Positions 6,289 through 64,000 of a stretch of 64,000 bases of DNA are shown here, one piece after another; position 1 is the first letter of the stretch; each line of letters opens with the position of its first letter. The position numbers and the translations under genes are program-made. Source of the DNA: Eledone cirrhosa (Eukaryota); NCBI GenBank assembly GCA_964016885.1, contig OZ024745.1:25730001-25794000 (forward strand). The letters run 5' to 3'. The notes beneath the pieces were generated by a model. That model was not told where the DNA came from and did not search any database. It saw nothing but the letters and a program-made list of their open reading frames with translations.

Positions 6289-7137
6289 GGTTAGTTATAT
6301 ACGATGTTATAACGATGTTATATGTTAGTTATATACGATGTTATAACGATGTTATATGTTAGTTATATACGATGTTATAACGATGTTATATGTTAGTTAT
6401 ATACGATGTTATAACGATGTTATATGTTAGTTATATACGATGTTATAACGATGTTATAACGATGTTATATGATAGTTATATACGATGTTATAACGATGTT
6501 ATATGTTAGTTATATACGATGTTATAACGATGTTATATGTTAGTTATATACGATGTTATATGTTAGTTATATACGATGTTATATACGATGTTATATGATA
6601 GTTATATACGATGTTATAACGATGTTATATGATAGTTATATACGATGTTATAACGATGTTATATGTTAGTTATATACGATGTTATAACGATGTTATACGA
6701 TGTTATAACGATGTTATATGTTAGTTATATACGATGTTATAACGATGTTATATGTTAGTTATATACGATGTTATATGTTAGTTATATACGATGTTATATA
6801 CGATGTTATATGTTAGTTATATACGATGTTATAACGATGTTATATGATAGTTATATACAATGTTATAACGATGTTATATGTTAGTTATATACGATGTTTT
6901 AACGATGTTATATGTTAGTTATATACGATGTTATAACGATGTTATATGTTAGTTATATACGATGCTATAATGATGTTATATGTTAGTTATATACGATGTT
7001 ATAACGATGTTATATGTTAGTTATATACGATGTTATAAGGATGTTATATGTTAGTTATATACGATGTTTATACGATGTTATATGTTAGTTATATACGATG
7101 TTATAACGATGTTATATGTTAGTTATATACGATGTTA
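6289..7137. repeat. minisatellite, 34-bp unit GTTAGTTATATACGATGTTATAACGATGTTATAT
   Basis: About 25 units built from 11-12-bp subrepeats. Confidence 0.95.
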
Positions 7138-7329
7138 ATATATAACTGGATCGTTTCGTCACCTTTGCGTATCTCAGTTGCTGTCAGCTTCAGTACGGCC
7201 ATGCTTTTCCACCACACTCCCTCTATAGAACTCCCAAACCAAGAACTTTTGGAAATTTCCCATAATTTCAGATTTGTATTGGAGTAGCTGTGGGTGGGTT
7301 GGTGGTGAGGAGGGGGGTCCTCTCCGAGT

Positions 7330-10864: not shown

Positions 10865-13800
10865 GTTGTGTTGGACAATTGTTTCTCACTTTGAGGTTGT
10901 GTTGGACAATTGTTTCTCACTTTGAGGGGTTGTGTTGGACAGTTGTTTCTCACTTTGAGGTTGTGTTGGACAATTGTTTCTCACTTAGAGGGGTTGTGTT
11001 GGACAGTTGTTTCTCACTTTGAGGTTGTGTTGGACAATTGTTTCTCACTTTGAGGTTGTGTTGGACAGTTGTTTCTCACTTTGAGGGGTTGTGTTGGACA
11101 GTTGTTTCTCACTTTGAGGTTGTGTTGGACAATTGTTTCTCACTTTGAGGGGTTGTGTTGGACAGTTGTTTCTCACTTTGAGGTTGTGTTGGACAATTGT
11201 TTCTCACTTTGAGGGGTTGTGTTGGACAGTTGTTTCTCACTTTGAGGTTGTGTTGGACAATTGTTTCTCACTTAGAGGTTGTGTTGGACAATTGTTTCTC
11301 ACTTTGAGGGGTTGTGTTGGACAATTGTTTCTCACTTTGAGGTTGTGTTGGACAATTGTTTCTCACTTTGAGGTTGTGTTGGACAATTGTTTCTCACTTT
11401 GAGGGGTTGTGTTGGACAATTGTTTCTCACTTTGAGGTTGTGTTGGACAATTGTTTCTCACTTTGAGGTTGTGTTGGACAATTGTTTCTCACTTTGAGGG
11501 GTTGTGTTGGACAATTGTTTCTCACTTTGAGGTTGTGTTGGACAATTGTTTCTCACTTTGAGGTTGTGTTGGACAATTGTTTCTCACTTTGAGGGGTTGT
11601 GTTGGACAATTGTTTCTCACTTTGAGGTTGTGTTGGACAATTGTTTCTCACTTTGAGGTTGTGTTGGACAATTGTTTCTCACTTTGAGGGGTTGTGTTGG
11701 ACAATTGTTTCTCACTTTGAGGTTGTGTTGGACAATTGTTTCTCACTTTGAGGTTGTGTTGGACAATTGTTTCTCACTTTGAGGTTGTGTTGGACAATTG
11801 TTTCTCACTTTGAGGGGTTGTGTTGGACAATTGTTTCTCACTTTGAGGTTGTGTTGGACAATTGTTTCTCACTTTGAGGGGTTGTGTTGGACAATTGTTT
11901 CTCACTTTGAGGTTGTGTTGGACAATTGTTTCTCACTTTGAGGTTGTGTTGGACAATTGTTTCTCACTTTGAGGGGTTGTGTTGGACAATTGTTTCTCAC
12001 TTTGAGGTTGTGTTGGACAATTGTTTCTCACTTTGAGGGGTTGTGTTGGACAATTGTTTCTCACTTTGAGGTTGTGTTGGACAATTGTTTCTCACTTTGA
12101 GGTTGTGTTGGACAATTGTTTCTCACTTTGAGGTTGTGTTGGACAATTGTTTCTCACTTTGAGGTTGTGTTGGACAATTGTTTCTCACTTTGAGGGGTTG
12201 TGTTGGACAATTGTTTCTCACTTTGAGGTTGTGTTGGACAATTGTTTCTCACTTTGAGGGGTTGTGTTGGACAATTGTTTCTCACTTTGAGGGGTTGTGT
12301 TGGACAATTGTTTCTCACTTTGAGGGGTTGTGTTGGACAATTGTTTCTCACTTTGAGATTGTGTTGGACAATTGTTTATCACTTTGAGGTTGTGTTGGAC
12401 AATTGTTTCTCACTTTGAGGTTGTGTTGGACAATTGTTTCTCACTTTGAGGTTGTGTTGGACAATTGTTTCTCACTTTGAGGGGTTGTGTTGGACAATTG
12501 TTTCTCACTTTGAGGTTGTGTTGGACAATTGTTTCTCACTTTGAGGTTGTGTTGGACAATTGTTTCTCACTTTGAGGTTGTGTTGGACAATTGTTTCTCA
12601 CTTTGAGGTTGTGTTGGACAATTGTTTCTCACTTTGAGGGGTTGTGTTGGACAATTGTTTCTCACTTTGAGGGGTTGTGTTGGACAATTGTTTCTCACTT
12701 TGAGGGGTTGTGTTGGACAATTGTTTCTCACTTTGAGGTTGTGTTGGACAATTGTTTCTCACTTTGAGGTTGTGTTGGACAATTGTTTCTCACTTTGAGG
12801 TTGTGTTGGACAATTGTTTCTCACTTTGAGGGGTTGTGTTGGACAATTGTTTCTCACTTTGAGGGGTTGTGTTGGACAATTGTTTCTCACTTTGAGGGGT
12901 TGTGTTGGACAATTGTTTCTCACTTTGAGGTTGTGTTGTACAATTGTTTCTCACTTTGAGGTTGTGTTGGACAATTGTTTCTCACTTTGAGGGGTTGTGT
13001 TGGACAATTGTTTCTCACTTTGAGGGGTTGTGTTGGACAATTTTTTCTCACTTTGAGGTTGTGTTGGACAATTGTTTCTCACTTTGAGGTTGTGTTGGAC
13101 AATTGTTTCTCACTTTGAGGTTGTGTTGGACAATTGTTTCTCACTTTGTGGTTGTGTTGGAAATTGTTTCTCACTTTGAGGGGTTGTGTTGGACAATTGT
13201 TTCTCACTTTGAGGTTGTGTTGGACAATTGTTTCTCACTTTGAGGTTGTGTTGGACAATTGTTTCTCACTTTGAGGTTGTGTTGGACAATTGTTTCTCAC
13301 TTTGAGGTTGTGTTGGACAATTGTTTCTCACTTTGAGGTTGTGTTGGACAATTGTTTCTCACTTTGAGGGGTTGTGTTGGACAATTGTTTCTCACTTTGA
13401 GGTTGTGTTGGACAATTGTTTCTCACTTTGAGGGGTTGTGTTGGACAATTGTTTCTCACTTTGAGGTTGTGTTGGACAATTGTTTCTCACTTTGAGGGGT
13501 TGTGTTGGACAATTGTTTCTCACTTTGAGGTTGTGTTGGACAATTGTTTCTCACTTTGAGGTTGTGTTGGACAATTGTTTCTCACTTTGAGGTTGTGTTG
13601 GACAATTGTTTCTCACTTTGAGGGGTTGTGTTGGACAATTGTTTCTCACTTTGAGGGGTTGTGTTGGACAATTGTTTCTCACTTTGAGGGGTTGTGTTGG
13701 ACAATTGTTTCTCACTTTGAGGGGTTGTGTTGGACAATTGTTTCTCACTTTGAGGTTGTGTTGGACAATTGTTTCTCACTTTGAGGTTGTGTTGGACAAT

Positions 13801-14902
13801 TGTTTCTCACTTTGAGGTTGTGTTGGACAATTGTTTCTCACTTTGAGGGGTTGTGTTGGACAATTGTTTCTCACTTTGAGGGGTTGTGTTGGACAATTGT
13901 TTCTCACTTTGAGGGGTTGTGTTGGACAATTGTTTCTCACTTTGAGGTTGTGTTGTACAATTGTTTCTCACTTTGAGGTTGTGTTGGACAATTGTTTCTC
14001 ACTTTGAGGGGTTGTGTTGGACAATTGTTTCTCACTTTGAGGGGTTGTGTTGGACAATTTTTTCTCACTTTGAGGTTGTGTTGGACAATTGTTTCTCACT
14101 TTGAGGTTGTGTTGGACAATTGTTTCTCACTTTGAGGTTGTGTTGGACAATTGTTTCTCACTTTGAGGTTGTGTTGGAAATTGTTTCTCACTTTGAGGGG
14201 TTGTGTTGGACAATTGTTTCTCACTTTGAGGTTGTGTTGGACAATTGTTTCTCACTTTGAGGTTGTGTTGGACAATTGTTTCTCACTTTGAGGTTGTGTT
14301 GGACAATTGTTTCTCACTTTGAGGTTGTGTTGGACAATTGTTTCTCACTTTGAGGTTGTGTTGGACAATTGTTTCTCACTTTGAGGGGTTGTGTTGGACA
14401 ATTGTTTCTCACTTTGAGGTTGTGTTGGACAATTGTTTCTCACTTTGAGGGGTTGTGTTGGACAATTGTTTCTCACTTTGAGGTTGTGTTGGACAATTGT
14501 TTCTCACTTTGAGGGGTTGTGTTGGACAATTGTTTCTCACTTTGAGGTTGTGTTGGACAATTGTTTCTCACTTTGAGGGGTTGTGTTGGACAATTGTTTC
14601 TCACTTTGAGGTTGTGTTGGACAATTGTTTCTCACTTTGAGGTTGTGTTGGACAATTGTTTCTCACTTTGAGGGGTTGTGTTGGACAATTGTTTCTCACT
14701 TTGAGGTTGTGTTGGACAATTGTTTCTTACTTTGAGGGGTTGTGTTGGACAATTGTTTCTCACTTTGAGGTTGTGTTGGACAATTGTTTCTCACTTTGAG
14801 GGGTTGTGTTGGACAATTGTTTCTCACTTTGAGGTTGTGTTGGACAATTGTTTCTCACTTTGAGGGGTTGTGTTGGACAATTGTTTCTCACTTTGAGGTT
14901 GT
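10865..14902. repeat. 4-kb minisatellite, 31/33-bp unit GTTGTGTTGGACAATTGTTTCTCACTTTGAG(GG)
   Basis: Roughly 127 head-to-tail units, no spacers, two length variants. Confidence 0.98.
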
Positions 14903-33946: not shown

Positions 33947-34140
33947 AGGAACAAGTAGAACCCCGACGGCAGAGCTCAAGCCGTTTCGACGGCTAATTCT
34001 GGTCCAGAAATAGCCGTCGAAACGGCTTGAGCTCTGCCGTCGGGGTCATACTTGTTCCTAATACCCACTCTACTACTCTAGGTATTGAGTACTTTGGTGC
34101 GTTATGGTCCATCTGGTTCCTTACCACATTTCTTTCGTTA
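33947..34140. mobile_element. palindromic pair of hammerhead 3' halves (family of 48838)
   Basis: ccccgacggcagagctcaagccgtttcgacggcta.ttctgg-t-ccagaaatagccgtcgaaacggcttgagctctgccgtcgggg, followed by the family tail. Confidence 0.75.
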
Positions 34141-34211
34141 TATATATATATATATATATATTCACACACGCAAGCATGCATATAGGTGTATACATATATA
34201 TATATATATAT

Positions 34212-34480
34212 TTGTAAATGTGTTGGCGTCCACTCTGTATGAGTCTTCAGCACGCGAATAGCCATTGCAAAGCGAAGCCAGCGAATAGCCATTGTGGCAA
34301 AGTGAAGCCAGCCACGCCTTATAAGGTATCCGACTGGAGGTCATAGACCAATCACTATGTCAACGGTGAATACTATAGATTGTCAACATTCTGATTGGTT
34401 GACGTCTGTAGCCAACATCTGTTTGTGTGGCTGCAGATTATTTGGTTGGTCATGGCATCAACTCCTCTCGGCTGAAACTC
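34212..34480 (-). mobile_element. PLE-like pseudo-LTR with CCAAT, TATA and a decayed hammerhead
   Basis: Minus strand ccaatcag ... ttataagg ... gtg-CTGAAGA-ctc/gag-t-GGAC (GAAA lost). Confidence 0.45.
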
Positions 34481-37176: not shown

Positions 37177-37217
<41 letters not shown>

Positions 37218-37248
37218 AGATCAAAAGATGGTTAAAGGAGTTCCATGT

Positions 37249-37317
37249 ATTTTATTATGCGCATTTCAAAAACAAACATCATCATGCAATAATATTTGTG
37301 TTTTCATCAGATAAAAC
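37249..37317 (-). ncRNA. type I hammerhead ribozyme (mirror copy)
   Basis: Exact reverse complement of 37431-37499. Confidence 0.85.
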
Positions 37318-37430
37318 AGGAGAACATGATATGAAGGCTAAAAAACACTTGTGGATAGTGCAGTTTTAAATCAACATATTTAAAACTGCACTATCCACAA
37401 GTGTTTTTAGCCTTCATATCATGTTCTCCT

Positions 37431-37499
37431 GTTTTATCTGATGAAAACACAAATATTATTGCATGATGATGTTTGTTTTTGAAATGCGCATAATAAAAT
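37431..37499 (+). ncRNA. type I hammerhead ribozyme
   Basis: Stem I gttttat/ataaaat, CTGATGA, 16-position stem II with three G-U pairs and one mismatch, GAAA, palindromic stem III ATGCGCAT, AUA site (predicted cut after 37492). Confidence 0.87.
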
Positions 37500-37624
37500 A
37501 CATGGAACTCCTTTAACCATCTTTTGATCTTATATTATGCATACTCCAGTCCTACAAACTGTAGAGTGCTTCTTATCCGATATCTGCATTGCTTTATTGT
37601 ACTACAATAAAACTCACCTCCTAC

Positions 37625-37664
<40 letters not shown>

Positions 37665-60057: not shown

Positions 60058-61905
<1,848 letters not shown>

Positions 61906-61977
61906 AGTACATTATGAAGAGAGAAGAAACATTTAGATATAATTAGTAATAAGATGTATCATACCTAAACTGCTTCT

Positions 61978-62076
61978 AGATTCCTCGACTACGTAGTTTC
62001 GTGGCATAATCAAAAACAATACATCATAGAGATATAGAGCTTTTGTGAGGTCTGCCGACTTATCAAGAGGATACCT
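61978..62076 (-). ncRNA. type I hammerhead ribozyme, U3-A8 core variant (copy 1)
   Basis: aggtatcctc-TTGATAA-long stem II closed by G-C-GAAA-ctacgtag-TC-gaggaatct, with palindromic stem III ACTACGTAGT. Confidence 0.82.
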
Positions 62077-62565
62077 CATTTTACTAGCTTCAAAGAGTAC
62101 GTCTATAAGATGTGAGATAGAATCCCAAAAGGCGGAGGGGGAGTCAATCACGTGATACGACGGTCAAGAAACAGAGCTAAGCCCCTTATAACCCTGAAAA
62201 AAATACCACGAAGGCGGAGGGGGTATTCATATCGAGGCTGTAGAAGAGGTGGTTAAGGAGACAAGAAGTATGAGAAATGGCAGCTTTCCAGCAGTCACTA
62301 CACTTCAAGGATTACTCGACCAGGGGGAGTTATAAACAATATATTGAGAAACACACAGATACATGCGGACACATACATGAATATATCCACATCCATCCTT
62401 AGTTAATGGTGCCAACCTTAACCGATGTTGCTCTATGAATAACTGGGACAAACCAATCCGAATGGATTAGACTGAACCAGTATCAGAGCTAAAAGTACAT
62501 TATGAAGAGAGAAGAAACATTTAGATATAATTAGTAATAAGATGTATCATACCTAAACTGCTTCT

Positions 62566-62664
62566 AGATTCCTCGACTACGTAGTTTCGTGGCATAATCA
62601 AAAACAATACATCATAGAGATATAGAGCTTTTGTGAGGTCTGCCGACTTATCAAGAAGATACCT
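62566..62664 (-). ncRNA. type I hammerhead ribozyme, U3-A8 core variant (copy 2)
   Basis: As copy 1. The one difference converts a stem I C-G pair to U-G. Confidence 0.82.
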
Positions 62665-63253
62665 CATTTTACTAGCTTCAAAGAGCACGTCTATAAGATG
62701 TGAGATAGAATCCCAAAAGGCGGAGGGGGAGTCAATCACGTGATACGACGGTCAAGAAATGGATGGATGTGGATATATTCATCTATATGTATGTGTCCGC
62801 ATGTATCTGTGTGTTTCTCAATATATTGTGTATATGTATATATATATATATATGTGTATATATGCATATCTATATCTATCTATATATATATATATATATA
62901 TATGTGTGTATATATATATATATGTGTGTGTGTAAATATGTATAGTATTACATCCGTCATCTAATGTCGTTTCTTTACTAAGATCACAGGATGTGATTTA
63001 AAGGAGACATTGGTTGCTATTTTTAGCAGCTGAAACAACCGTGTAGAGAGGGAGTGGGGTACTGTTTCAGTTGTTGAAGTGACACCAAATTTAACCCTGT
63101 GTTATGAGTACATATCTGTTGTTGTTGCTTTCACTCCCCCACTTTCCCTTTCTTTCTTTTGTATCTGGTCAAAACATGGAATTCTATAGTTGTCATTGCA
63201 TCATTTTGGAAGGAAGAGTTAGCTCCTATTTATCCTTCGGATGTTATATGTAA

Positions 63254-63440
63254 TAATTATTTCTACTTTTGACACAAGGCCAGCAAATACCGAGTGCATT
63301 ACTGGTACTTTATTTTATCGACCCCGTAAGGATGAAAGGCAAAGTTAACCTCGGCGGCATTTGAACTCAGAATGGCAAGGGTCGTAACTCTATGCATCAA
63401 AGCATGGCATCCGACCCTCTACCGATACTGCAAATCCACA
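63254..63440 (-). mobile_element. SINE family A
   Basis: Conserved body and head. Confidence 0.88.
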
Positions 63441-63815: not shown

Positions 63816-64000
63816 AAAGACATAGGCTGTGTCTTTTCAGTAGAAATATGGTAAGGAAAGGGTTAAAGACATAGGCTGTGTCTTTTCAGTAGAAATATGG
63901 TAAGGAAGGGGTTAAAGACTTAGGCTGTGTCTTTTCAGTAGAAATATGGTAAGGAAAGGGTTAAAGACATAGGCTGTCTTTTCAGTAGAAATATGGTAAG
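63816..64000. repeat. minisatellite, 49-bp unit AAAGACATAGGCTGTGTCTTTTCAGTAGAAATATGGTAAGGAAAGGGTT
   Basis: About 3.8 units, running off the window end. Confidence 0.93.

Follow-up and report, generated by a model that had tools for sequence, protein, structure and literature searches.

The tandem hammerhead stretch of this DNA is one insertion of a young, multi-thousand-copy, non-coding mobile element of about 590 nt. The insertion is two-armed and embedded in (TA)n, and the element, which carries a predicted self-cleaving hammerhead ribozyme (HHR), was likely copied by the reverse transcriptase (RT)-endonuclease of an autonomous Penelope-like element (PLE), probably a Neptune-like one. By its sequence, the element falls under the definition of a non-LTR retrozyme: it forms tandem non-coding units with a type I HHR, has no LTR, PBS or PPT, is dispersed in many copies and co-occurs with PLEs. 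It appears to work like a non-autonomous PLE, and its insertions have PLE architecture, with a partial tandem, an inverted 5'-truncated arm, an optional tail and a microsatellite target. The window, meaning the whole 64,000-nt stretch analyzed (positions 25730001-25794000 of contig C5; also labelled locus L001), lies in a 3.0-Gb, 1,796-contig, microsatellite-rich genome.

Table 1. Parts of the insertion and its flanks, in window coordinates
Feature	Position	Strand	Details
Long arm	61906..62759	-	854 nt, 1.45 head-to-tail monomers; 5'-truncated at monomer position +404; 3' end short (S), +81 past the HHR cut
Inverted short arm	62761..62834	+	74 nt, monomer +177 to +244; ends at long (L) 3' end
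Cut-to-cut monomer	61987..62574	-	588 nt, 40% GC, non-coding
HHR copy 1	61978..62076	-	type I; core U3-U4-G5-A6-U7-A8-A9 at 62066-62060; helix III palindrome 61997-61988; predicted cut 61987/61986 at GUC
HHR copy 2	62566..62664	-	core UUGAUAA 62654-62648; palindrome 62585-62576; predicted cut 62575/62574
S site in upstream unit	62494..62496	-	+79 to +81; putative first reverse-transcription start site, from family 3' ends
L site	62331..62339	-	+236 to +244; putative second reverse-transcription start site, from family 3' ends
Intron-like stretch	62489..62552	-	64 nt, AG/GTATGA ... TACTAAT ... pyrimidines ... TAG/C; contains S site; follows HHR
Hairpin 1, loop CCUCCGCCUU	62202..62227	-	stems covary between subfamilies; putative function
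Hairpin 2, loop CCUCCGCCUU	62120..62145	-	repeated at 62708-62733 in upstream unit
Left target flank	60059..61905		(TA/TATG)n microsatellite
Right target flank	62835..62923		(TA)n microsatellite

The whole insertion spans 61906-62834 between (TA/TATG)n arrays and is a typical case for the family, joining an 854-nt arm that ends at S to a 74-nt arm that ends at L. The preliminary description had reported a tandem minus-strand pair of U3-A8 HHRs, 588 nt apart within 266-bp direct repeats, and these were found again at the same positions. The direct repeats (61906-62171 and 62494-62759, spacing 588 bp) are merely the overlap of 1.45 tandem units, and their copies differ at two positions (62069 G/62657 A; 62098 T/62686 C). 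The inverted arm, which had gone unnoticed, is 90.5% identical to 62331-62398 by self-BLAST, and its final bases blend into the (TA)n target. As proposed earlier, the 588-nt unit is non-coding: an ATG-independent scan of the monomer outside the microsatellite found no frame longer than 76 aa and no ORF with RT and GIY-YIG. A genome-wide search for tandem arrays, suggested in the same description, found them at many loci, which at the level of the family excludes its worry that the duplication is an assembly artefact. Contigs from three public runs cover the unit, with no alternative letter at core positions, and contain the head-to-tail joint in two of the three; their loose (TA)n ends fall at 62496 and 62331/62339, the same two places as in genomic copies. 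These runs come from one sample, possibly the assembly's own source, and hence are not independent, and no contig covers the whole insertion stretch.

Both minus-strand HHRs have the stem II, GAAA, palindromic stem III and GUC site attributed to them earlier, along with G10.1-C11.1, a helix II insert of ~60 nt and the helix III palindrome ACUACGUAGU. The sole difference between them, which had been read as preserving pairing, is indeed a helix I change from C-G to U-G, but the family has C at this position, so the U in copy 2 is likely a private mutation and gives no evidence for pairing. The family as a whole supports a type I HHR with a U3-A8 core that appears to be under structural constraint. 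The 18-mer 3' half of the HHR has 7,696 exact matches genome-wide (reversed control, 0), and a gapped U3-A8 HHR pattern has 7,768 (control, 4); these are exact-match counts with several per insertion, and the difference from the controls indicates that the HHR is not a chance motif. Among 40 loci picked by the 3' half alone, the 5' core UUGAUAA is present in 81 of 83 intact HHRs, with six more HHRs truncated. An alignment was made of 31 HHRs chosen across subfamilies, some of them retrieved with patterns in which letters of the core and helix III were preset. In all 31, U3, U4, G5, A6, A8, A9, G10.1-C11.1 and GAAA are invariant, part of this invariance being imposed by the search patterns, and N7 is U, A or G while U3 and A8 stay fixed. 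The cleavage-site triplet is GUC in 30 and GUU in one. Paired cells make up 88.6% of 836 (30-52% in slid controls), and both-sided change, drawn from related subfamilies, occurs in 80 cells as against 35.8 in shuffles and 1-27 in slid controls. Counted by pair, both-sided change affects 12 of 27, which is not above shuffles (78/500), and is distributed as 3/5 in helix I, 1/2 in the base of helix II, 6/15 in its extension and 2/5 in helix III. The elements of a type I core are thus present (3-8 paired, free N7, GAAA, NUH), helix I is open, and the three helices show covariation. The lack of conserved core and stems among genomic copies had been named as grounds for giving up the ribozyme; instead, the core is fixed except at N7 and the helices covary.

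Self-cleavage at GUC is a prediction from the letters of the motif. The helix III palindrome alternates between ACUACGUAGU and ACUGUACAGU (195 matches) and is palindromic either way; each version gives a 10-bp duplex (-12.9 and -13.4 kcal/mol, respectively) but does not fold into a hairpin by itself, in keeping with tandem copies cleaving as a dimer. In the minimum free energy (MFE) structure of the monomer, the HHR fold is incompletely formed. U3-A8 cores are active and natural in other HHRs (PMC3088659) and are reported in about 1,300 HHRs of Schistosoma PLEs (PMC4209133); cleavage was lacking in eight of nine Xenopus retrozyme dimers described in a preprint (bioRxiv 10.64898/2026.07.22.740005). 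Rfam HHR models gave no match in the window at E <= 10, only microsatellite-driven miRNA noise, a miss likely explained by the variant core and long helix II; an Rfam match is no defining feature of hammerhead chemistry. A genome search for a C3-G8 version returned 37 candidates, of which 35 proved by eye to be an upstream CTGANGAG before a U3-A8 core, one was the L204 chimera, and one (L212) was unrelated. The lack of this version is unsurprising, since two changes would be needed.

A one-unit query of the genome gave 2,655 first-look candidates, 40 of which were scored. The loci sampled comprise the 30 top-scoring, 40 taken by position among the first 100 matches of contig C1, and about 60 of diverged subfamilies. 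Full cut-to-cut monomers (n = 58) measure 573-607 nt, with an average identity of 99.8% within a locus and 92.8% between loci. Identity to subfamily A is 76-82% for B and 63-69% for D, with monomers of 580-593 nt.

Evidence for PLE-type mobilization, one of the suggestions of the preliminary description, comes from the insertion ends. Counted from the predicted cut, 3' ends lie at +79/81 (S) or at +236 to +244 (L), and TA follows; the S-to-L "tail" is about 165 nt. Two-armed, back-to-back insertions (n = 59) comprise 46 S/L, one L/L, no S/S and 12 with one or two other ends. S/L pairing therefore occurs in 46 of the 47 insertions with both ends classed (p = 7e-13 against even chance), a count that includes one S/L case twice, owing to a segmental duplication, and whose subfamily B loci were retrieved with a query favoring L arms. 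In the position-picked set of 40 C1 loci, 21 of 25 two-armed insertions are S/L and four have another end; the 19 single arms divide into nine S, nine L and one other, and TA adjoins 61 of 69 3' ends. The fixed S and L ends, (TA)n targets and inverted arms support mobilization of this type. PLE copies are described as partial tandems with an inverted 5'-truncated copy, a tail often at one end only and a (TA)n bias (PMC8557442), and the tail is explained as the segment that separates two internal sites from which the RT starts on both target strands (PMC11167929).

Several young autonomous PLE families occupy the same (TA)n sites in the genome. Three are called Neptune-like, on the strength of the CX4CxxC linker before the GIY-YIG domain, a motif named in PMC8557442. 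NepI (L146, L147, L148) is young and has only an HHR-like half core; its frames of 1,171-1,218 aa contain an asparagine-rich insert, and its two 3' ends, separated by about 65 nt, lie within the start of the ORF. NepII is represented by L092. NepIII (L250, C1:145869000-145878000) is a very young family with a near-complete copy, a unit of 4,979 bp, a 938-aa RT-endonuclease frame and a minimal U3-A8 HHR with core UUGAAAA in its pLTR. It ends at +80 (S) and +144 (L), has (TA)n flanks, and is S/L in all seven distinct two-armed loci with both ends classed. A fourth, very abundant family with a 758-aa frame (L093, L094, L158; L155-L179; 71,013 first-look candidates) has a 3' UTR that enters a microsatellite-like tract, and no HHR was seen in it. 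Pfam gave one weak RVT_1 match among four proteins. These data suggest that the driver is likely a Neptune-like PLE. BLAST and an nhmmer profile search of the monomer against the four families gave low-complexity matches only, and the CCUCCGCCUU motif is absent from them; many more autonomous PLEs exist in the genome (38,027 and 71,013 first-look candidates). The linkage to an RT/GIY-YIG ORF envisaged at the outset was not found in the sampled loci, and a search for a parent ORF from a diverged piece at L037 led to subfamily B and no ORF.

In two insertions, retrozyme and Neptune-like pieces are joined without intervening (TA)n. At L077 (320-1737), a NepI-like arm stands back to back with subfamily B as an L/L pair, the sole 5'-to-5' PLE join in 132 retrozyme loci scanned; at L204 (1255-1975), found through a pattern favoring such a match, the join is NepII-like. 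These joins hint at a shared RT, while deletion between neighbors could also make them; L028, for instance, adjoins a LINE-like piece. L047 and L066 were considered as hybrids and rejected as end-to-target adjacencies.

By the mechanism that we propose, the tandem locus would be transcribed, and a PLE protein would nick both (TA)n strands and begin reverse transcription from a pair of sites within the RNA, one for each strand, as found in vitro for an anole PLE (PMC11167929). The outcome would be a back-to-back pair of arms, each truncated at its 5' end. An arm can contain as many as five HHRs, so the template would be longer than one unit, either an uncut multimer or a circle. Cutting by the HHR would most likely take place in a dimer, with two tandem copies paired through the 10-bp palindrome; this would free unit-length RNA, which may then be closed into a circle by ligation, the least supported step. 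Whether a circular RNA forms at all we regard as about evenly balanced.

One explanation, to which we assign real weight though less than an even chance, dispenses with circular RNA: a PLE would copy linear read-through multimers only, with the HHR as a structural or protein-binding module or a rare cutter. Consistent with this, arms traverse several HHR sites, and their 5' starts show no clear excess at the predicted cut (5 of 258 apparent starts lie no more than 3 nt away, and low-complexity noise accounts for many of the 258). The anole PLE works with unprocessed RNA, HHR activity being dispensable for its insertion in vitro (PMC11167929). The opposite arms differ in sequence in some subfamily-D insertions, which would need two templates or a mixed multimer, and the units of L050 differ at six positions; one circular template does not explain such cases. 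Against this explanation, the core is fixed except at N7 over ~35% divergence, the dimer-enabling palindrome is kept and unit length is conserved. Array units are also closer to one another than to other sampled loci in seven of eight arrays (in L069, 0-2 differences within the array against 10 outside), which fits rolling reverse transcription on a circle but also homogeneous source arrays. Folding of circular monomers points the same way. Folded as a circle, the sense strand of the window monomer is more stable than its shuffled versions (z -4.2; antisense -0.4), and eight natural monomers, with 20 shuffles each, all have sense z of -3.3 to -7.9, with antisense values of -0.3 to -1.1 in A and B and -3.9 to -5.1 in D; they are 60-65% paired, barely over the usual shuffle level.

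The fullest version of the circular reading is tentative, and we consider it rather unlikely in all its parts. The element would be a long-lived, independent, ~590-nt circular-RNA parasite of Neptune-like PLEs, moving by U3-A8 dimer cleavage, ligation, docking on a dimeric PLE RT via twin CCUCCGCCUU hairpins, and rolling reverse transcription from two obligate starts, one per target strand; each protomer may carry a different RNA, giving hybrid insertions. If true, the insertions would be a genomic record of a PLE making both strands of an insertion.

Other explanations fare less well than copying of a non-coding element by a PLE. The copies might belong to a rare autonomous PLE, as 5'-truncated ends of its pLTR, with the copies that carry its ORF lying outside the sample; there would then be no separate non-coding lineage. 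The monomer does resemble a pLTR with tail in permuted order, given its HHR, intron-like stretch and two ends and a junction near the L site, and about 130 of several thousand loci were sampled. However, at every tandem junction examined another 590-nt unit follows, in no case an ORF, arrays reach five units, and each of subfamilies A, B and D possesses a complete non-coding monomer of its own, which makes this explanation very unlikely. Mobilization by a LINE is highly improbable. Twin priming yields inverted 5' arms, both ends of the element are AT-rich, so that the S and L sites might merely anneal to (TA)n, and LINE ORFs are common nearby; against this, either end, S or L, can terminate a long or a short arm, both lie inside the tandem unit without poly(A), and the same two-end rule holds for an autonomous PLE of this genome. 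Satellite-like growth through duplication of DNA and unequal crossing over, leaving the HHR as an inherited relic, is a route proposed for vertebrate retrozyme arrays (bioRxiv 10.64898/2026.07.22.740005), and one locus, L043, is a segmental duplicate. This explanation has almost no remaining plausibility and is already largely refuted by the end pattern: the 3' ends are fixed while 5' truncation varies, inverted arms occur at the insertion sites, and the arrays are short, scattered and without related flanks. Copies in a very young group are also up to 99.7% identical across loci.

The stems of the CCUCCGCCUU hairpins carry compensatory changes between subfamilies, and the hairpins form a putative RT docking site or, alternatively, a GC-box promoter on DNA. 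A diverged subfamily copy at L214 (~1180-1500) has three tandem CCUCCGCCUU hairpin modules rather than two. The intron-like stretch keeps its 5' splice-like signal in 59 of 62 monomers and its 3' AG in only 23 of 62, so it is probably vestigial.

Several known systems resemble the element in part. With animal non-LTR retrozymes it shares non-coding tandem units with one type I HHR each, GC below 50%, a self-paired monomer, thousands of copies and co-occurring PLEs (PMC7229834; bioRxiv 10.64898/2026.07.22.740005). It differs from them in its U3-A8 core and ~60-nt helix II insert, and no homologous PLE pLTR was found for it among the families compared; the circular RNAs reported there are 170-400 nt as against ~590 nt here, and the range of 51-972 bp given in the preprint includes ~590. 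Two-ended inverted insertions are not described in the available text of these papers. Endonuclease-bearing Neptune and Poseidon PLEs share partial tandems, an inverted 5'-truncated arm, two 3' ends with the tail at one, AT-rich or (TA)n targets, an HHR and an intron-like stretch beside it (PMC8557442, PMC11167929), whereas the present element has no ORF, its unit is the whole element, and its tail is about 165 nt rather than the 30-40 bp given in both sources. The HHR of the Schistosoma Cercyon PLE resembles the one here in U3-A8 covariation, G10.1-C11.1, a short helix I and a palindromic helix III for dimer cleavage (PMC4209133). The ~1,300 Schistosoma motifs are reported as heterogeneous and mostly single, in contrast to the fixed core, tandem non-coding family, 10-nt palindrome and long helix II found here. 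Plant LTR retrozymes are likewise non-autonomous HHR-flanked units of similar size, but those described (PMC7229834; bioRxiv 10.64898/2026.07.22.740005) have a type III HHR, true LTRs, PBS/PPT, a 4-bp TSD and Gypsy mobilization; none of these applies here, the HHR being of type I topology and the repeat length varying per locus.

The U3-A8 ribozyme variant and the link between retrozymes and PLEs are already known, retrozymes having been published as PLE derivatives (PMC7229834; bioRxiv 10.64898/2026.07.22.740005). New here are the tail of 165 nt, the S/L rule as counted for a retrozyme, and the twin CCUCCGCCUU hairpins. In our literature search, neither the family itself nor S/L pairing counted on a retrozyme was reported; the family may already be catalogued as a repeat, Repbase and Dfam being outside the comparison. 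The text available of the preprint names only vertebrates, three insects and a coral as retrozyme hosts, and the preprint, which links animal retrozymes to PLEs by sequence, treats how they move as an open question (bioRxiv 10.64898/2026.07.22.740005). Thousands of young copies bear the mark of the PLE mechanism in their ends, as two fixed putative starts, used one per strand. A 590-nt ORF-free template, together with PLE frames of 938-1,218 aa, makes second-strand synthesis, template recognition and the role of the HHR testable in vitro.

PLE-type hammerheads abound in this genome: type I HHR motifs with a canonical core, belonging to other families, also lie in the flanks of L007, L037, L047, L068 and L073. 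In the window, 37208-37640 holds a second, unrelated HHR insertion, an inverted pair with a canonical CUGAUGA core, long helix II, the palindrome AUGCGCAU and (TA)n flanks; a search with it gave 1,084 first-look candidates, and the 40 that were scored are inverted pairs with two recurring end points, a PLE-type pattern. A short element ending at (TA)n, probably mobilized by a PLE, recurs at 33996-34340 of the window (minus strand), in the 3' flank of L147 and in the left flank of L027. A repeat near 63270-63440, shared with L109, we take to be SINE-like. Minisatellites of 31, 34 and 49 bp occupy 10865-14902, 6290-7142 and 63816-64000 of the window, respectively.
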